Shown here: positions 2,091 to 57,870 of the stretch, piece after piece
Layout: every line of letters starts with the position of its first letter
Numbering within the stretch: position 1 is the stretch's first letter
Assembly (NCBI GenBank): GCA_041746715.1
Contig: JBGTGN010000095.1
Coordinates: 12,685 to 76,684, forward strand
DNA length: 64,000 nt
Source of the DNA: Pirellulales bacterium
GTDB taxonomy: Bacteria; Planctomycetota; Planctomycetia; Pirellulales; UBA1268
Direction: 5' to 3'
Translations under genes and position numbers: made by a program
The notes under the pieces: generated by a model
Told to the model about the DNA's origin: nothing
The model's input: only the letters and a program-made list of their open reading frames with translations
Databases searched by the model: none

Positions 2091-3362
2091 ATGCCCATTG
2101 AATTGAAGGTCCCTGAAGTCGGCGAGTCGATCACTGAAGTGATGATTGGTGCCTGGAAGAAGGGCGAGGGAGACGGCGTTGCTATAGACGACGCCGTCGT
2201 TGAAATCGAGAGTGACAAGGCGACCGTTGAACTGCCGGCACCGGCGGCTGGCACCATCGTGAAGATACTCAAGGGCAGTGGCGAGAAGGCTGTCGTCGGA
2301 GAAATCATCGGGTACCTGGAGCCGGCCGGTGCTGGCGCGCAGGCCACCGGAGCACCGGCGTCAGGTGCATCGCCTGCCTCGTCGTCGCCCGTGGTCGATG
2401 TCCGGCGGACCGAAGGACGGACCACAATCGGTTCCGTCCAGTCGCCTGCATCCTCTTCGGCGTCGCCCCAGCGGGTGATGCCTGCGGCGGCACGTGTGCT
2501 TGCCGAGGCTGGTGCCTCACCGGCTGGCGTCGCCGGTACGGGTCCAGGAGGGCGAGTGACCAAGGCCGATGCGTCGCGAGCCGTCGCACCGCCGCCGGCA
2601 CCGCGTGCAACGCCCCCAGCGCCGATACCTGCTGCGCCTTCACCGCTCGTCCAGACCGGTGGCCGTGAAGAACGGTCTCAACTTATCAGCCCGATTCGGC
2701 GGCGGATTGCTGAGCGGCTCGTCGAAGCCCAGCACCATGCGGCGCTCCTCACGACCTTCAACGAGGTCGATATGTCGGCCGTCATGGAGCTTCGGAAGAA
2801 GTTCAAGGATATTTTTCAGGAGCGGCATGGCGTGAAGCTCGGCTTCATGTCGTTCTTCGTGCGGGCGGCGGTCGAGGCGCTTCGCGCGGTGCCGCAGGTC
2901 AATGCGGAGTATCGCGATCCGCACATCGTGTTTCGCGACTACTACGACATTGGCATCGCAGTCGGCGGTGGCAAAGGCCTTGTGGTACCGGTGATCCGAA
3001 ACGCCGAAACAATGTCGTTTGCCCAGATCGAAGCAGTCATCTCGGACTTCGCCCGTCGTGCTGGCGACAATAAGCTCAAGCTCGAGGAGCTCCAAGGAGG
3101 CACCTTCACCATTTCCAATGGTGGCGTGTATGGCTCGATGCTCTCGACGCCGATCATCAATCCGCCGCAGAGCGGCATCCTGGGCCTGCATGCCATTCAA
3201 GAACGGCCGATGGCGGTCAACGGCCAGGTGGTGATTCGCCCGATGATGTACCTCGCCCTCACCTATGACCACCGGCTTGTCGACGGCCGCGAAGCGGTGA
3301 CCTTCCTCAAGCGGATCAAGGACACGATCGAGGACCCAAGTAGGCTCTTCCTAGAAGTGTGA
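2091..3362 (+). CDS. sucB: dihydrolipoyllysine-residue succinyltransferase (E2o)
   Basis: N-terminal lipoyl domain ([16 protein letters not shown]), an Ala/Pro-rich linker, and a C-terminal acyltransferase core with DHRLVDG. Confidence 0.93.
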
Positions 3363-3363
3363 C

Positions 3364-4752
3364 ATGCAGCAGCACGACGTGGTGATCATTGGTGGTGGGC
3401 CTGGCGGCTACGTGGCGGCTTTTCGGGCGGCTCAGCGGGGCCTGTCGGCGGCCGTCATCGAAAAGGAGCCGAAGCTCGGCGGCACCTGCCTGCGGGTCGG
3501 ATGCATTCCTTCCAAGGCGCTTCTCGAGTCGAGCCACAAGTATGAGGAGACGGCCCACGATCTCGAGGCTCATGGCGTGAAGGTTTCGGGCATATCGCTC
3601 GATCTCGCGCGGCTCATGCAGCGGAAGGACGAGGTCGTCTCGACGCTTGCCAAGGGCATCGACGCCCTCCTCAAGAAAAACAAGGTGACGCGCTATGTCG
3701 GTACCGGCCGGCTCGCAGGGCCAGGGAAGGTGACGGTCACGGCGGCGGACGGCGGCGTCACCACGCTCGACGCCCCGCGGGTCATCGTGGCGGTGGGCAG
3801 TCACCCCGTCGTGCTCCCGGGCATCGAAGTCGATGGCGACCGCGTGGGCACGAGTACCGAGGCAATCGCCTATCCCGAGGTGCCGGAGCACCTGGTCGTG
3901 ATTGGCGGCGGCTACATCGGGCTGGAGCTAGGAAGTGTTTGGCGACGCCTCGGATCCAAGGTCACCGTGCTCGAGTACGCCGACCGTATTCTTCTTGGCA
4001 TCGATGGCGACATTGCGTCCGAGGCCCTCGGCCTCTTCCGAAAGCAGGGGCTCGACATCCGCCTTGGCGTCAAGGTCACGGGGGCGCGAGTTGATGGCAA
4101 CGGGTGCATCGTTGAGATCGAGGGTGCCGATCCGATCCGGTGCGATCGCGTGCTTGCGGCCACAGGCCGACGTCCAGCCACCGATGACATCGGGCTCGAG
4201 ACCGTGGGAATCGTGCCCGACAAGCGAGGCGTGATCCCGGTCGATGATCATTTCCGCACGTCGGCCGACGGTGTCTGGGCGATCGGAGACTGTGTTCCCG
4301 GCCCGATGCTCGCGCACAAGGCTGAGGAAGACGGTGTTGCCTGCGCGGATGGAATGACCGGTGGCTGGAGCCACGTCGATTACGACCTCGTCCCTGCCGT
4401 CGTGTTTACGCATCCCGAGATCGCGGCCGTGGGCAAGACCGAAGAGCAGCTCGTGGCCGAAGGAGTGGCCTTCAAGAAGGGCGTCTTCCCATTCCGAGCG
4501 AATGGCCGGGCGCGGACGCTCGGCGACACCGTGGGTAAGGTGAAGGTGTTGGCCGATGCGGCGACCGATCGCGTCCTTGGGGTTCACATCATTGGTCCCG
4601 AGGCGGGCAACCTTGTCGCGGAGGCAGCCGCTGGAATGACCTTCGGTGCCACGGCCGAAGACATCGCCCGTGTCTGTCATGCCCACCCGACGCTGCCGGA
4701 AGCGCTCAAGGAAGCCGCGATGGCGGTGGCCGGCCAGGCCATCCACGCCTGA
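3364..4752 (+). CDS. lpdA: dihydrolipoyl dehydrogenase (E3)
   Basis: GGGPGGY FAD-binding motif and redox-active GGTCLRVGCIPSK. Starts 1 nt after the sucB stop. Confidence 0.93.
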   Translation: MQQHDVVIIGGGPGGYVAAFRAAQRGLSAAVIEKEPKLGGTCLRVGCIPSKALLESSHKYEETAHDLEAHGVKVSGISLDLARLMQRKDEVVSTLAKGIDALLKKNKVTRYVGTGRLAGPGKVTVTAADGGVTTLDAPRVIVAVGSHPVVLPGIEVDGDRVGTSTEAIAYPEVPEHLVVIGGGYIGLELGSVWRRLGSKVTVLEYADRILLGIDGDIASEALGLFRKQGLDIRLGVKVTGARVDGNGCIVEIEGADPIRCDRVLAATGRRPATDDIGLETVGIVPDKRGVIPVDDHFRTSADGVWAIGDCVPGPMLAHKAEEDGVACADGMTGGWSHVDYDLVPAVVFTHPEIAAVGKTEEQLVAEGVAFKKGVFPFRANGRARTLGDTVGKVKVLADAATDRVLGVHIIGPEAGNLVAEAAAGMTFGATAEDIARVCHAHPTLPEALKEAAMAVAGQAIHA

Positions 4753-4778: not shown

Positions 4779-4920
4779 GTGGCTCGGGGAGGCCCGTGCC
4801 ACATCGCCGGACGCTTGCGACGGGCGTCGTGCCCGTCGCTTCGCTTGGAGAAAAATGAGCTTCGCCCTCCAGGCTGCGCTCATTTTTCTACGCCGGCTCT
4901 GCGGCACGGGCCACTCCGAG
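4779..4920. repeat. palindromic MITE/REP-like element, copy A (full length, diverged)
   Basis: Left arm ggctcggggaggcccgtgccacatcgccggacgc and right arm gccggctctgcggcacgggccactcc are inverted repeats. It matches the copies at 43064 and 56113. It lies between the convergent lpdA and OMP genes. Confidence 0.8.
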
Positions 4921-4940
4921 CATGGCCCGCTTTTGGGCGA

Positions 4941-5906: not shown

Positions 5907-5932
5907 TACGCCCGGGTGGATTCGAACCACCG
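5907..5932 (-). repeat. 26-bp exact duplicate of the tRNA-Arg 3' end (T-arm plus acceptor strand)
   Basis: tacgcccgggtggattcgaaccaccg is identical at 5907-5932 and 6030-6055. Confidence 0.9.
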
Positions 5933-6029
5933 GGCATTTTCCCGCTTCGCCTCGCCGTCCTGACTCGCTTCGCTTGGATGCCTCCGGCATCGAGAGTGGG
6001 CGGGCATCGTGCCCACCAGCTTTCACAAG
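5933..6029. repeat. degenerate fragment of the palindromic repeat family (copy F)
   Basis: ctcgccgtcctgactcgcttcgcttgg and gggcatcgtgccc resemble internal segments of copies A and D (ctcgccatcctggcttcgcttgc; gggcgtcgtgcccgtcgcttcgcttgg). Similarity was judged by eye. Confidence 0.35.
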
Positions 6030-6103
6030 TACGCCCGGGTGGATTCGAACCACCGACCCTGAGATTAGAAGTCTCATGCTCTATCCAACTGAGCTACGGG
6101 CGC
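6030..6103 (-). tRNA. tRNA-Arg (anticodon UCU)
   Basis: Reverse complement GCGCCCGTAGCTCAGTTGGATAGAGCATGAGACTTCTAATCTCAGGGTCGGTGGTTCGAATCCACCCGGGCGTA folds as a cloverleaf. Anticodon loop is CTTCTAA; T-loop is TTCGAAT. Confidence 0.93.
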
Positions 6104-11336: not shown

Positions 11337-12551
11337 ATGAGCGCAGCCGTGGAAACTTACCGTGATGAGATGGAGGCGACCTACGCGGTCGACTTCAACC
11401 GTGACCGCGAGCCAATCAAGTCGCGGAAGCGATTCCCCGAGTATCGCCGCACAGGCGGGGCCCCAACTCGGGTCAGCGGCATGCACTGTCGCCGCAGCAA
11501 GCGGTGGACGTGGGGCAGCGGCCGCGGTGCCCGGATGACGAATCTCCGGGCGTTTGCCGGAGCCTTGGCCTTGGCTTTAGCCGGCCTGGCATCCAGCGCA
11601 TCTGCCGTCACACTCTCAATGAACATCATCGGCGACCCGGGCAATGCCGGGAACGTCGGGTCCAGCCCGTCTGGGCTCGGAGCAGTGGCTGATGTCTTCC
11701 GAATGGCGACCACCGAGACGACGAACACAGACTACGTCGAGTTTCTCAACACGGTGGACCCGAACGGCACGTCGACCAGCGGCATTTACAATACGAACCA
11801 GACGGTGAGTGCCCTCGGCGGCATCAGCTACGACTTGATGGCCCCGATCGGGTCGAAGTACTCGGTCAAAGCGGGGGTCGCACCCACCGGTGCGAGCTAC
11901 GGCACCATGCCGGTGAACTTCGTCAGCTGGTTCTCCGCCGCACGCTTCGTCAACTGGCTCGAGAATGGCCAGACGTCGGATCCGCTCGACCTCGAGGACG
12001 GCACCTACACCCTCAATAACGTTCAGAACGGGCCAATCGTGGCACGCAACCCCGGTTCCAGCTACTTCCTCCCCAGCATCGACGAATGGTACAAGGCGGC
12101 CTTCTTCAACGGCACGACGTACACCACCTACCAGACCGATACGAATTCTGTTCCGACGGCCACGGCCGTGGTAGCGACGCCCAACGCGGCGAACTTCGGT
12201 GGTGTGGTGGGTGGTCCGCTCGACGTGGGTTCCTACACGGTCGATTCAACTTCTGCCTACGGCATGTTCGACATGCTCGGCAACGTGACGGAGCTCACCG
12301 ACTCGAGCACCCTCGGCCAGTACCGGGCCGTGGGTGGTGGCTACGCTGGCCTCCTCGCCTCGTGGGATGCCAACGCAAGTGCGATCTTGAAGAATGGAAA
12401 CTTCGTCAACGTCAACTACGGCTTCCGCGTCGCCGCGGTACCGGAGCCGGGCACGATCGCTCTCGCTGGAGCTGGCCTCGCCGGCCTCGCTGGCCTCGAG
12501 TGGAAGCGTCGCCGCAAGACGAAGGTGGCCAGCCCGGTCCTCGCCGCCTGA
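11337..12551 (+). CDS. FGE-sulfatase (SUMF1/C-type-lectin-fold) domain protein with PEP-CTERM anchor
   Basis: MPVNFVSWFSAARFVNWLENG, LPSIDEWYKAAF, GMFDMLGNVTE and GFRVA are FGE-family motifs. C-terminus VPEPGTIALAGAGLAGLAGLEWKRRRK is a PEP-CTERM sorting signal. AGGAG RBS precedes ATG 11337. The signal-peptide-like segment starts only at residue 67 (alternative start 11535). Confidence 0.75.
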   Translation: MSAAVETYRDEMEATYAVDFNRDREPIKSRKRFPEYRRTGGAPTRVSGMHCRRSKRWTWGSGRGARMTNLRAFAGALALALAGLASSASAVTLSMNIIGDPGNAGNVGSSPSGLGAVADVFRMATTETTNTDYVEFLNTVDPNGTSTSGIYNTNQTVSALGGISYDLMAPIGSKYSVKAGVAPTGASYGTMPVNFVSWFSAARFVNWLENGQTSDPLDLEDGTYTLNNVQNGPIVARNPGSSYFLPSIDEWYKAAFFNGTTYTTYQTDTNSVPTATAVVATPNAANFGGVVGGPLDVGSYTVDSTSAYGMFDMLGNVTELTDSSTLGQYRAVGGGYAGLLASWDANASAILKNGNFVNVNYGFRVAAVPEPGTIALAGAGLAGLAGLEWKRRRKTKVASPVLAA

Positions 12552-20128: not shown

Positions 20129-20215
20129 GCTCGGGGTTGCCCGTGCCGCGGCGAGACAGGATGCCCATGGACGACGTGCGATAGAATCCCGCGGTGGACG
20201 CATAGCGCCACGGCA
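20129..20215. repeat. degenerate copy (G) of the palindromic repeat family
   Basis: gctcggggttgcccgtgcc (20129-20147) is identical to the left arm of copy C. The remainder is diverged (gcgccacggcatc as a possible right-arm remnant). Confidence 0.45.
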
Positions 20216-34485: not shown

Positions 34486-34564
34486 GGGTTGCCCATGCCG
34501 CATCGCCATCCTGGCTGCGCTCAGCCTCCAACGCCGGCTCTGCGGCATAGGCAACCCATCGCGG
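34486..34564. repeat. palindromic repeat family, copy B (short, internally deleted form)
   Basis: gggttgcccatgccgcatcgcc joined directly to atcctggctgcgctcagcctccaacgccggctctgcggcataggcaaccc. Confidence 0.8.
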
Positions 34565-43063: not shown

Positions 43064-43207
43064 GTGGCTCGGGGTTGCCCGTGCCACATCGCCGGACGCT
43101 TCCTTCGGGCATCCTGCCCTTCGGTCGCTCGGTGTAGCCTTCGCTTCGCCATCCTGGCTGCGCTCAGCCTACAACGCCGGCTCCGTGGCACGGGCAACCC
43201 CTCGCGG
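43064..43207. repeat. palindromic repeat family, copy C (full length, best consensus)
   Basis: Left end gtggctcggggttgcccgtgccacatcgccggacgc; right end cgccggctccgtggcacgggcaacccctcgcgg. Confidence 0.85.
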
Positions 43208-43440
43208 ATGGCGCGAGCACCGAGGCACGAAGCAACCACAACCGTGAGCTCCGCGCAGCGAATCCGGAAGCGCCCCATCTGTTCAGGCGAGCCATGCCGA
43301 CTTGCCCACAGCGAATCCGCGAGCGCCCCGTCTGTTCAGGCGAACCACACCGCAGCGCGCCCGGAATCGGGAGCCTGGATGGCTCCCGGCCGCCCGGAGG
43401 GGCGGCAAGGCCTCGGGGCCATGGATGGCCCGAGGCCGCT
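43208..43440. repeat. repeat tail module: 35-nt imperfect tandem pair plus three GC-rich hairpins
   Basis: cagcgaatccg..agcgcccc.tctgttcaggcga at 43256-43290 and 43309-43343. Hairpins gggagcc/ggctccc, gccgccc/gggcggc and ggcctcggg/cccgaggcc. Confidence 0.6.
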
Positions 43441-43442
43441 AC

Positions 43443-43661
43443 CTACAGTATCCCGCCGTGGGTTCGCCACGGGGTCATGTGTGAGGGCTGGTCGAGGAAC
43501 CAGATGCGTTCCCACTCGTCGCTGAGCGCTCGAAGATCTTCCGACGTGTAGATGAGCTCTTGGGCCCGACGAAGCGGGTCGCCTGAGTACATCGGGATGA
43601 GGCAGCCCGTGGATGTCGCCACGAGGGTCACCGCACACAGCAGCCACACTGCCTTCCTCAT
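43443..43661 (-). CDS. small lipoprotein
   Basis: Signal peptide with lipobox-like TSTGC. Confidence 0.5.
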   Translation of the reverse strand: MRKAVWLLCAVTLVATSTGCLIPMYSGDPLRRAQELIYTSEDLRALSDEWERIWFLDQPSHMTPWRTHGGIL

Positions 43662-56112: not shown

Positions 56113-56257
56113 GTGGGGCTCGGGGTTGCCCATGCCACATCGCCGGACGTTTGCTACGGGCATCCATGCCCTTCGCTCACTCGATGTTTGCTGCGCTCTC
56201 GCCATCCTGGCTTCGCTTGCAAACAACGCCGGCTCTGTGGCACGTGCAACCCCTCGC
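56113..56257. repeat. palindromic repeat family, copy D (full length)
   Basis: Left arm gtggggctcggggttgcccatgccacatcgccggacg; right arm cgccggctctgtggcacgtgcaacccctcgc. Confidence 0.85.
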
Positions 56258-56401
56258 TGGAACGCCGTTGATGGCGCCCCGGCTGCCACGGCGCACTACA
56301 CACCGTAGCGCGTACGAGCACGGGAGCCCGGAGGTGCGACCGCCGGGCGGAGGCCCGGCAAGGCCGGCGGGAGCATGGATGCCCCGACGGCCGAAAAGCC
56401 A
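56258..56401. repeat. GC-rich tail module related to 43350-43440
   Basis: Shares gggagcc, ggcaaggcc and catggatgSccc.a.ggcc segments with the copy C tail. Similarity was judged by eye. Confidence 0.45.
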
Positions 56402-56473
56402 GTTTGCTGCGCTCTCGCCATCCTGGCTTCGCTTGCAAACAACGCCGGCTCTGTGGCACGTGCAACCCCTCGC
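56402..56473. repeat. copy E: 72-bp exact duplicate of the right half of copy D
   Basis: gtttgctgcgctctcgccatcctggcttcgcttgcaaacaacgccggctctgtggcacgtgcaacccctcgc is identical at 56186-56257 and 56402-56473. Confidence 0.9.
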
Positions 56474-56527: not shown

Positions 56528-57526
56528 CTACGCCCCGATCCAGGTCGCGTTCTTAAAGCTTCGCATCCAGGTTCGCTGTCGCTTCGCGAGCTGGTGGGTG
56601 CGGAGCTGTGTGCGTGCGATGGCCTCGGCGCGGTTGATGCGACCGGCGAGGAGGTCGATTGCCTCGGCGTATCCGGCAGCCTGGCGGGCGGTCGGGCCGA
56701 TGCCGCCGGGGGAGGCGAGAGCGGCTTCGGTCTCTTCAAGGATGCCGCCTGTAAACATCGACTCGACGCGTCGGTTGATGCGATCTCGGAGCGTTTGCCG
56801 TGTGACATCGAGAATCATGAGTCGCTGCTCGAAGAGCGGACTGGGGGTCGCGGTGTGAGACGCCGAAAGCGGGCGGCCTGTGATCGTGGCGACTTCGAGC
56901 GATCGTACGATCCGCGTGGCGTCATGGGGATGGATGCGGGCTGCCGATGCGGGGTCGATCGTGGCCAAACGGGCATGGAGGTGCTCGGGGCCATCGGCGG
57001 CGACCTGGGCCATGAGCGCTGCGCGGACGACCGGGTCTGCGGCGGGGAGCTCGGCGAGTCCATCCCGCATGCCTCTGAGATAGAGCGGTGTTCCGCCGAC
57101 AAACAGAATGGCACGGCCCCGCGAGCGGCAGTCTTCGACGGCCACGGCGGCGGCCTCGAGCCACGCTGCCACACTGAACGTTTTGGCCGGCGAAACGAGG
57201 TCGAGGCAGTGGTGGGGGACGGCGGCTCGATCGGCGTTCGACGGTTTTGCAGTGCCGATATCGAGGCCCCGGTATACGGCAATCGAGTCAACACTCACGA
57301 TTTCCGCCCCGAGCCTTTGGGCCAGGGCGATGCCAAGGGCCGACTTGCCGGCGGCCGTCGGCCCGGTGAGAAACCAGCAGTCTTCCCCGAGAACGGGGCC
57401 GATGGGGCAGGGAGAGCCCGGGGGGCATGCTAGAGTTGAGCAGTTCGCCGCTGGCGGCCGGAGCGGATCCGGTGGCCCAGCGGTCGGCCCTGGCTCCGGA
57501 GTCGTTCGTGGCGGATTTCCAGACAT
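56528..57526 (-). CDS. miaA: tRNA dimethylallyltransferase
   Basis: P-loop GPTAAGKS, VDSIAVYRGLDIGTAKP and GGTPLYL. The only in-frame ATG upstream of the P-loop (57526) gives a ~50-aa Pro-rich extension, so the start is uncertain. Confidence 0.85.
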   Translation of the reverse strand: MSGNPPRTTPEPGPTAGPPDPLRPPAANCSTLACPPGSPCPIGPVLGEDCWFLTGPTAAGKSALGIALAQRLGAEIVSVDSIAVYRGLDIGTAKPSNADRAAVPHHCLDLVSPAKTFSVAAWLEAAAVAVEDCRSRGRAILFVGGTPLYLRGMRDGLAELPAADPVVRAALMAQVAADGPEHLHARLATIDPASAARIHPHDATRIVRSLEVATITGRPLSASHTATPSPLFEQRLMILDVTRQTLRDRINRRVESMFTGGILEETEAALASPGGIGPTARQAAGYAEAIDLLAGRINRAEAIARTQLRTHQLAKRQRTWMRSFKNATWIGA

Positions 57527-57870
57527 CAAAGCGGTCAGCAGGCGATGTGCTCGAGGCGCTCGAGCAGGTGATTGTCGCGCGGAAGGGGGGCGACGGGAGT
57601 CGATCCTACACCGCCCGGCTACTCGCTGGCGGCGTCGAGGTAGCCGGGGCGAAGGTGACCGAAGAGGCCCGTGAGTTCGTGCAGGCCGCCGAGGCCGAGG
57701 CCGATGAGAGAGTCGTCTCTGAGGCAGCCGATCTCTTCTACCACGCGATGGTACTGCTGGCGTGTAGGGATGTCTCGCTTGACCAGGTCGCTGGCGAGCT
57801 ATCCCGAAGGTTTGGCGTGTCGGGGCTTGCAGAGAAGGCGGCCAGGGCAAGCGGCGGAGGAAACGGATGA
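57508..57870 (+). CDS. hisE: phosphoribosyl-ATP pyrophosphatase
   Basis: VLEALEQVIVARK...SYTARLL...KVTEEA.E......E..DL.YH..VLL. Start is ambiguous (GTG 57508 or ATG 57427). Confidence 0.8.
   Translation: MADFQTSKRSAGDVLEALEQVIVARKGGDGSRSYTARLLAGGVEVAGAKVTEEAREFVQAAEAEADERVVSEAADLFYHAMVLLACRDVSLDQVAGELSRRFGVSGLAEKAARASGGGNG

Follow-up and report, generated by a model that had tools for sequence, protein, structure and literature searches.

The 64,000-nt window analysed here, a stretch of contig JBGTGN010000095.1 from a Pirellulales bacterium (63.7% G+C), carries several copies of a dispersed intergenic palindrome. We interpret this palindrome, with a probability of about 0.6, as a family of ~140-bp non-autonomous modular repeats that is similar to miniature inverted-repeat transposable elements (MITEs) and to REPINs, is specific to a clade of high-GC Planctomycetota (probably Pirellulales), and is moved in trans. 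An initial annotation, made from the letters of the window, had proposed a dispersed, intergenic, palindromic family of the MITE or repetitive extragenic palindrome (REP) kind. Such a family is genuine, and its conserved termini recur outside the window, the element being multicopy both here and in 12 or more further genomes of Planctomycetota. What that annotation overlooked is the interior, a covarying three-way junction, and the companion repeats that accompany some copies. The system is of a known kind, that of small non-autonomous palindromic intergenic repeats, rather than a new one. The family itself is apparently undescribed: Rfam gave no match at the gathering threshold in the window, nor at E ≤ 1 in three loci with full copies, and neither the arm sequence nor the element turned up in a literature search for that sequence and for reports of MITEs or REPs in Planctomycetes.

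The refined limits of the element run from GGCTCGGGG to CCCC(TC/GA)GC. A covariance model (R1) was built from 36 copies and run over all 64 kb with filters off. Copies A, C, and D are full units of ~140 nt by repeat search, MAFFT alignment, and blastn, and they score 134–157 bits (E = 1e-25 to 1e-30) with model R1. Copies E and B reach ~40 bits (E ~ 2e-6), and apart from matches to A, B, C, and D in reverse, nothing else falls below E = 0.5. All five copies lie at, or a few bases from, the positions first assigned to them (Table 1), whereas the original count of at least seven copies is reduced to five copies at four loci and one arm fragment. The fragment, G, is a 22-nt blastn match to the 5′ arm (E = 2.8e-5) whose partner arm is absent; it is not seen by model R1, and its fold does not surpass that of shuffled sequences (z = −0.1). 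The other proposed degenerate copy, F (5935–6029), is not a family member. It is undetected by model R1, folds no better than shuffles (z = −0.2), and has only one short hairpin module (GGGCATCGTGCCC) in common with the family.

Table 1. Coordinates of the repeat copies, of the parts of copy C, and of the companion repeats in the 64,000-nt window.
Feature	Position	Strand	Description
Copy C, full, 140 nt	43066–43205	+	GGCTCGGGG to CCCCTCGC; model R1 157 bits
Copy C, 5′ arm	43067–43095	+	GC..GGGGTTGCCCGTGCCAC at 43067–43087; loop ATC; helix-2 GCCGG at 43091–43095
Copy C, hairpin 1	43098–43128	+	GGGCA-TCC-TGCCC core, extended foot
Copy C, hairpin 2	43130–43175	+	Variable outer stem; inner GCCA-TCC-TGGC
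Copy C, 3′ arm	43176–43204	+	Helix-2 CCGGC; loop TCC; GTGGCACGGGCAACCCC..GC
Copy A, full, 12-bp hairpin-2 stem	4781–4921	+	Divergent arm GGGGAGGCCC/GGGCCACTCC; 134 bits
Copy D, full	56117–56257	+	155 bits; 91% identical to locus L010
Copy E, 3′ half (hairpin 2 and 3′ arm)	56402–56473	+	100% identical to D 56186–56257; ~40 bits
Copy B, internally deleted	34486–34562	+	Arms and inner hairpin 2 kept; 39.7 bits
G, lone 22-nt 5′-arm fragment	20129–20150	+	GCTCGGGGTTGCCCGTGCCGCG; divergent intergenic region
Companion repeat R2	43346–43440		Hairpins, minus-strand loops of the CCATCCATGG type; begins 140 nt past C
Companion repeat R2, second copy	56299–56400		In the D–E spacer

A common fold was found in every full copy. 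The terminal inverted repeats (TIRs) span ~22–27 bp (GGC(NN)GGGGTTGCCCGTGCCACA..TCGCCGG / CCGGCTCC..TGTGGCACGGGCAACCCC(NN)GC), and in all full copies they form an outer helix of 17 pairs (GC..GGGGTTGCCCGTGCCAC with GTGGCACGGGCAACCCC..GC), inside which a small asymmetric internal loop is followed by a near-invariant 5-pair helix (GCCGG/CCGGC). This inner helix closes a three-way junction bearing two hairpins. The consensus ends given in the initial annotation are right and able to pair; the paired region, which comprises the 17-pair outer helix and the 5-pair GCCGG/CCGGC helix, is longer than its figure of 17–18 bp. Both loops carry (C)ATCC(A)TG on one and the same strand, so the hairpins repeat a motif directly and not in inverted form. 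Junction and loops hold the invariant bases, namely TCGCCGGACG, ACGCCGGCTC, GCGCT, and the loop TCC, while the stems vary. Copy C folds as RNA with −79.9 kcal/mol on the plus strand and −90.6 kcal/mol on the minus strand (z = −5.2 and −7.8, respectively) and as DNA with z = −4.9. For A, B, C, and D, z-scores range from −3.6 to −9.6 as RNA or DNA; their RNA folds were better than 200 of 200 shuffles, as were the DNA folds of A, C, and D, and the DNA fold of B was equalled by 1 of 200.

The stems vary in a strongly coordinated manner. In a MAFFT alignment of 36 copies, which drew on ~12 other genomes and was not fitted to the structure, 96.5% of the 1476 pair cells held standard pairs, and compensatory changes that altered both sides were seen in 24 of 41 pairs. 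No column shuffle out of 500 matched any of the observed pairing measures, and pairing fell to 34–51% when partners were slid by 1–3 columns. Compensatory changes affect 10 of the 17 pairs of helix 1, and helix 2 is nearly invariant. The stem of hairpin 1 (helices 3–5) covaries between GGGC/GCCC, GGCC/GGCC, and GCCC/GGGC around a loop that stays TCC or TCG, and the two helices of hairpin 2 (helices 6–7) carry compensatory changes in 7/8 and 2/3 pairs. For the outer stem of hairpin 2 there are several entirely dissimilar versions, each internally complementary (e.g. GGAAACC/GGTTTCC, GCAGAC/GTCTGC, GCCAGC/GCTGGC, GTTTGC/GCAAAC, and AAAAATGAGC/GCTCATTTTT), and the arms likewise have compensated variants, e.g. 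GGGGCTGCCCACGCCCC/GGGGCGTGGGCAGCCCC. These stem versions coexist within one genome, since A, C, and D all differ, and one version also recurs across genomes.

The same alignment bears on the question of which molecule is constrained. Next to 1409 Watson-Crick cells, we counted 16 G.U cells on the plus strand and 20 A.C cells, which correspond to G.U on the minus strand. In ~14 copies, a long open reading frame (ORF) with high third-position G+C terminates no more than 60 nt from the left side of the element, and in ~10 copies no more than 60 nt from its right side, so that transcripts enter from either side, and the asymmetric loop sequence is kept although its orientation relative to the incoming transcript varies. 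The absence of a strand bias in wobble pairs, together with the occurrence of both orientations, points to a constraint that acts on DNA, or equally on both strands, and not on RNA of one defined strand; that latter reading is supported neither by the wobble counts nor by orientation.

These observations bear directly on the alternative that the repeat is a host-selected structured RNA, i.e., a module of 3′ untranslated or intergenic regions acting as a bidirectional terminator or insulator, as a barrier to RNase III or exonucleases, or as a protein-binding RNA. We consider this quite unlikely. Both strands do fold very stably, covariation is strong, junction and loop bases are invariant, and the minus-strand loops (CAGGAUG) resemble a GGA-in-loop site, but wobble pairs at 16 versus 20 favour neither strand, and the element faces incoming transcripts in either orientation despite its conserved asymmetric loop. 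Genomic context is similarly divided: the position of the copies near gene ends and the high conservation of certain orthologous copies, both detailed below, would suit an RNA module, whereas the lack of promoter-like and intrinsic-terminator motifs and of any Rfam match at E ≤ 1, the presence or absence of the element and the subfamily swaps at orthologous sites, the persistence of truncated, deleted, and interrupted copies, and the location of certain copies upstream of start codons would not.

The copies are intergenic, with a preference for positions just past the 3′ ends of genes. In the window, copy A is inserted between the convergent lpdA (stop 4752) and a hypothetical gene (stop 4941), 28 and 19 nt from the respective stops, and copy B between a convergent LON-domain gene, 12 nt past its stop, and a hypothetical gene. 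Copy C lies 117 nt past a CxxCxxCC (YkgJ-like) gene, and copies D and E are flanked by the stop of miaA (56528, minus strand) on one side and by a peptidase C26 start (55979, minus strand) on the other. The earlier description of three copies as sitting immediately after stop codons is therefore apt for A and B but not for C. Outside the window, rough gene calls place ~22 of 37 copies no farther than 60 nt from where a long ORF stops. Convergent gene pairs are the commonest and an over-represented context (3 of 4 loci in the window and 13 of 32 elsewhere), tandem and divergent arrangements are also seen, and one orthologous copy is found ~25 nt upstream of a start codon. The neighbours are housekeeping genes, e.g. 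enolase, GDP-mannose dehydratase, and rRNA dimethylase. At A, C, and D/E, we found no sigma-70-like promoter motif and, on either strand, no hairpin followed by the T-run (U-tract) of an intrinsic terminator; readings of the element as an intrinsic terminator or as a sigma-70 promoter were consequently rejected. A role as terminator or mRNA stabiliser, also raised in the initial annotation, is speculation.

Comparison of orthologous sites revealed turnover of the element. The lpdA site was compared across four relatives (L053–L056) with the same gene order and 91–93% LpdA identity. In two of these (L055 and L056), only 18 and 22 nt separate the convergent stops and the site is empty. In the window it is occupied by copy A, in L054 by a canonical copy that an insertion sequence (IS) interrupts, and in L053 by a sibling element. 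Since this site is variously empty or filled, the element comes and goes. Its density also differs, with four loci in the 64-kb window vs. two, namely the interrupted canonical copy and the sibling, in 85 kb of the four relatives. Among pairs of syntenic loci, some orthologous copies are better conserved than their coding flanks (95.6% vs. 79.9%, 97.8% vs. 85.3%, and 99.3% vs. ~95%), and others have been swapped for a different subfamily or inverted (74% vs. 85% for the flank).

The element appears in turn to be a target for other mobile DNA. The canonical copy in L054 (~11470–12065) is split in the loop of hairpin 1 by a decayed IS of ~590 nt, with an ORF fragment matching DDE_Tnp_1 (E = 2.4e-5) and terminal repeats AATCSYGTTCGGYACGGC. 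The same IS occurs in L058 (~3155–3975, the same locus as L031) at the identical hairpin-1 loop position, in opposite orientation and in an unrelated copy, and each insertion is associated with an ~11–12 bp duplication of the hairpin (GCCATCC(A)TGGC). This IS thus seems to target the hairpin of the element. In E. coli, IS1397 targets REP loops.

Copy B is shortened internally. Approximately 66 nt are missing between two TCGCC direct repeats (CA[TCGCC]GGACG ... CT[TCGCC]ATCC), the arms are retained together with the inner portion of hairpin 2, and the resulting junction (CATCGCC|ATCC) inside an element was seen only in B across 478 kb. The earlier suggestion that B demonstrates two arms alone to be a viable unit does not hold: it is a one-off deletion derivative, produced by a single internal deletion and the sole such form in these 478 kb.

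The initial annotation had also raised the questions of target-site duplications and of a cognate transposase, and neither was found. The duplication search covered 31 non-orthologous copies, repeat lengths of 2–9 bp, and all offsets, and yielded no direct repeat above a permuted-flank null; no transposase with a link to the element was detected in the DNA sampled around it (659 kb, comprising 83 fetched loci, the window, and five lpdA loci). Both results are relevant to a classical TIR-MITE, which would be an internally deleted derivative of an IS with a DDE transposase and the same ~26-bp TIRs, moved by cut-and-paste in trans. The long and well-conserved TIRs, the identical arms around unrelated interiors, and the size of ~140 bp with intergenic dispersal, as is typical of Correia, RUP, and Nezha elements, are all in keeping with this model. 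It nonetheless appears unlikely: no 2–9-bp target-site duplication was found, none of the 83 loci holds a longer element or IS with these arms and a transposase, and a DDE enzyme reading only the TIRs has no need of a conserved, covarying interior. The sole long interior among these loci, and hence the only candidate for an autonomous copy, carries a methyltransferase gene and no transposase. With neither a target-site duplication nor, among the 83 loci, a parent IS, the classical TIR-MITE is unsupported, and a REPIN/RAYT-like or other structure-dependent route fits better.

The interiors themselves vary to such an extent that the unit is defined by its arms. The sibling element in L053 (11417–11612, ~195 nt) has the same termini (GGCTCGGGG...CCCCGAGC) and lies at the same site as copy A, but encloses a different interior of ~180 nt with several hairpins and with loops CCATCCATGG and CCTCC, and it folds with −130 kcal/mol (z = −4.9). 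Since model R1 misses this sibling, the superfamily is wider than the canonical unit. At four further loci (L005, L034, L039, and L045), the same arms enclose arrays of an unrelated 84-nt unit. In L038 (620–2270), canonical arms enclose an interior swapped for 1.5 kb that contains pieces of the companion repeat R2 and a gene for a 290-aa S-adenosylmethionine-dependent methyltransferase (Methyltransf_25, E = 1e-12). This 1.5-kb form is no transposing element, because L038, L064, L078, and L068 represent one locus in four assemblies. Hairpin 1 is an expansion hot spot, replaced by 2–5 tandem units of ~84 nt (TTTCGCGCCGNCGCCGCCGTCCCGGCGTCGGC...GGGCAAAGCCCGGC) at L005/L074, L034/L073, L045/L086, and L039, and tandem arrays with a 124-nt period and units without a 3′ arm were observed in L065 (12710–13027) and L076.

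The companion repeat R2 extends this modularity beyond the arms. It is located 70–200 nt from the main element, with loops reading CCATCCATGG or CCATCCAGG on the minus strand; two 53-nt tandem units (43256–43352) precede it after copy C, and it also adjoins elements in L010, L018, and L038. Intergenic DNA here is a mosaic assembled from several repeat modules, a build also found in bacterial interspersed mosaic elements (BIMEs). In the window, hairpins with ATCC loops were found only within the elements, R2, and F, and a simple genome-wide REP made of such hairpins was rejected as an explanation.

Under the reading that we prefer, that of a non-autonomous palindrome moved in trans, the element would be copied or moved in folded form, as single-stranded or cruciform DNA, by a structure-specific enzyme whose gene lies elsewhere in the genome. 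We infer an HUH-Y1 enzyme of the RAYT/TnpA_Y1 type as the leading candidate; the enzyme would recognise the element by its conserved junction and loops. Recombination or gene conversion between copies may then exchange interiors and subfamilies in place. Upon read-through, a hairpin of −70 to −100 kcal/mol would form in either transcript and would probably serve as a 3′-end barrier or processing site, as a side effect.

Strand-symmetric constraint, invariant loop and junction sequences, the lack of a transposase in the sampled DNA, and in-place interior swaps, which fit recombination among copies, could also be explained by a host function at the DNA level, with the element acting as a dispersed protein site (of gyrase, IHF, or nucleoid type) or as a supercoiling cruciform and spreading mainly by recombination. 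Binding of such proteins has been proposed for REPs and BIMEs. Here, no binding protein is indicated by any of the data, the density of the element is very unlike between close relatives (4 loci in 64 kb vs. 2 in 85 kb), and its presence or absence at orthologous sites speaks against an essential chromosomal role, and we regard this explanation as very unlikely.

Several points weigh against movement in trans by a structure-specific enzyme. Comparison of orthologous sites provided no clean filled/empty pair, as the flanks of the two empty sites are too diverged to set exact ends. Compensatory changes in a palindrome can arise unselected, via template-switch “quasipalindrome correction” or arm-to-arm conversion, and because templated repair between arms can yield it, covariation is no proof of a recognised structure. 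Unlike in canonical REPs and REPINs, a conserved unpaired GT[AG]G foot is missing from the hairpins, and the internal pair is direct instead of inverted. Across the 145 ORFs neighbouring the element, no transposase occurs among the 25 most frequent Pfam families, a list in which a single match would be hidden. With IS200 and E. coli RAYT sequences as probes, tblastn detected no Y1-HUH protein in the 659 kb, and a six-frame scan of the same DNA for HUH/Y motifs, including the class 3 motif NHVH ... YV[VI]xEQ, found none. These transposase negatives are weak, given that genes of this sort are usually present in one copy and that the searches covered sampled DNA rather than whole genomes. The neighbour survey also found no recurrent partner, the 25 listed families being ordinary cellular ones. 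As to the foot, neither a GTAG nor a CGTC is conserved, and the minus-strand GTAG of some subfamilies lies within a covarying stem. Lacking both the target-site duplication of classical MITEs and the foot of canonical REPs, the family is filed as MITE/REPIN-like and not under either of the two.

Two sequence features nevertheless provide a lead toward HUH-Y1 enzymes, as a resemblance and not as a test. On the minus strand, about two thirds of the 36 copies have C(G/A)GA directly 5′ of the helix starting GCCGG, with TGGA, AGGA, or AAGA in the remaining copies, and the hairpin loops of the family read ATCC, ATCG, or CTCC. Class 3 TnpA_Y1 proteins are found mainly in Planctomycetes, and the genes encoding them are bordered by atypical high-copy hairpins that have a 5′ CnGA foot (PMC6006769). 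Such hairpins, known from Planctomycetes, Acidobacteria, and Proteobacteria, are in the published examples 26–30 nt long with GTAA-type loops (e.g. ACGAGCCGGAAGC... in Planctomyces limnophilus), and subclass 2.7 REPs have TCC-type loops, e.g. GTGGGGCAGCCAATCCTGGCTG in Solibacter (PMC6006769). The family resembles the class 3 hairpins in its C(G/A)GA next to a helix starting GCCG on one strand, and the subclass 2.7 REPs in its loops. The class 3 hairpins are, however, far shorter than its 140-nt unit.

A bolder interpretation of these features, which we hold to be a long shot, sees in the unit more than selfish DNA, namely a domesticated structure-specific system. The invariant junction and the (C)ATCC(A)TG loops, common to R2 and the L053 sibling, would then form the recognition code that a dedicated host protein, single-copy and either an enzyme or a binding protein, reads. 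One candidate reader of this code would be the class 3 HUH-Y1 proteins, which are poorly understood and concentrated in Planctomycetes. If so, the family would represent either the first defined substrate of class 3 HUH-Y1 proteins or a new dispersed regulatory module, of DNA or RNA, at gene 3′ ends.

Among known systems, Correia-type MITEs look most like the family. The Neisseria Correia elements (CREE/NEMIS) and comparable MITEs (ERIC, RUP, and Nezha) are 100–160 bp long with ~26-bp TIRs, lie near genes, are co-transcribed as stable hairpins, and exist in full-length and internally deleted forms. The family shares their size, TIRs, gene proximity, deleted form, assembly breakage, and spurious ORFs. 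Correia elements insert with duplication of a TA target and contain promoter elements as well as an IHF site, whereas the family has neither a duplication nor a promoter-like motif, and its interior is a covarying three-way junction. Integron attC sites, with boxes R″ and R′ reading RYYYAAC and GTTRRRY and with co-oriented cassettes arrayed beside intI, were considered and rejected: the arm cores (GGGCAAC / GTTGCCC) misfit these boxes, and the copies lie 9–30 kb apart among housekeeping genes (lpdA, miaA, and the LON-domain gene).

The closest functional analogues are elements of the REPIN/BIME type, moved by Y1-HUH enzymes. As in REPINs and BIMEs (PMC3733652, PMC6006769), multicopy intergenic GC-rich hairpin units build one long hairpin, targets are not duplicated, several subfamilies occur per genome, and copies form mosaics with other repeat modules. 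Unlike in REPs and REPINs, the unit is ~140 nt long and ends in true TIRs of 22–27 bp that are not themselves hairpins; its internal hairpins are direct where those of REPINs are inverted, the whole unit still being one long hairpin. It also differs from REPs in that a conserved unpaired GT[AG]G foot is lacking and that neither a tnpA_REP nor a class 3 gene was found in the sampled 659 kb; a single-copy tnpA_REP gene with the repeats on its flanks is what defines a REPtron. Finally, TIRYT elements contain Y1 transposase genes between long inverted repeats with the consensus GGGG[AT][CG]A[CG] (PMC3733652, PMC6006769). Their TIRs, like the arms of the family, are moderately abundant long inverted repeats beginning GGGG and thought to be moved by RAYT-like rather than DDE enzymes. 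The arms (GGGGTTGC, or GGGGAGGC in copy A) misfit this consensus at positions 6–7, and no Y1 gene was seen between or beside them.

The distribution of the family was examined by scans of species-representative genomes, metagenomes, and viral contigs. The first, an exact-pattern scan, returned 51 loci, 50 of which contain the element and come from 13 metagenome-assembled genomes (MAGs); the remaining locus, from Actinoplanes, is a chance 22-mer match. At least 12 of these 13 MAGs are high-GC and Planctomycetota-like, and one, from Acidimicrobiales, has a partial copy. The metagenome scan added 32 loci, many in microbial-mat samples, and the viral contigs gave no match to the element. Whole units in other genomes are 81–91% identical to those in the window while their flanks are unrelated, and close homologues of the window LpdA are found in Planctomycetota and Pirellulales MAGs. 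Carrier MAGs are labelled as Planctomycetota, Planctomycetia, Pirellulales, or “Candidatus Kuenenia” (60–68% G+C), the last including loci L002, L005, L006, L008, and L009, and another is labelled Chitinophagaceae. Fetched contigs labelled Kuenenia or Chitinophagaceae have 60–70% G+C. Kuenenia stuttgartiensis has a G+C content of ~41%, and because the carrier contigs lie far above this value, these labels look wrong; the MAGs concerned are probably Pirellulales-like Planctomycetota.

Assemblies frequently end at the element. In at least 13 of the 51 genome loci, the match lies within ~130 nt of a contig end, and Logan contig L052, an exact match to the lpdA of the window, stops 70 nt past this gene. 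Contig ends at the element indicate the assembly breakage typical of repeats. The family thereby accounts for broken contigs in Planctomycetota MAGs as well as for recurrent spurious ORFs and peptides in their annotation, such as GCPCHIAGR, and the covariance model and consensus can be used to mask or track such sites. Beyond this practical use, the mobile DNA of Planctomycetota has been little studied, and the family stands out by unusually clear covariation and a modular build. It represents a concrete candidate substrate for the uncharacterised Y1-HUH proteins of planctomycetes, and an independent IS that seems to target its hairpin loop adds to its biological value.

Two further features of the window concern the surroundings of the copies. 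The longest miaA ORF, next to copies D and E (56528–57850, minus strand), encodes 440 aa, with the IPPT domain starting from residue 192. As this domain begins so late, the true miaA start is probably well downstream, and the 5′ part of the ORF is likely spurious, like other long ORFs that run over repeats (e.g. 43064–43525). At region F, the last 26 nt (TACGCCCGGGTGGATTCGAACCACCG) of a tRNA-Arg(tct) gene (6029–6103, minus strand) are repeated 96 nt downstream of the gene, and the two duplicates (5908–5933 and 6030–6055) flank the region. This arrangement looks like the attL and attR sites of an integrase-type insertion at a tRNA 3′ end, now reduced to ~95 nt. The stretch between the duplicates contains hairpin modules (GGGCATCGTGCCC and GATGCCTCCGGCATC) similar to those of the family.

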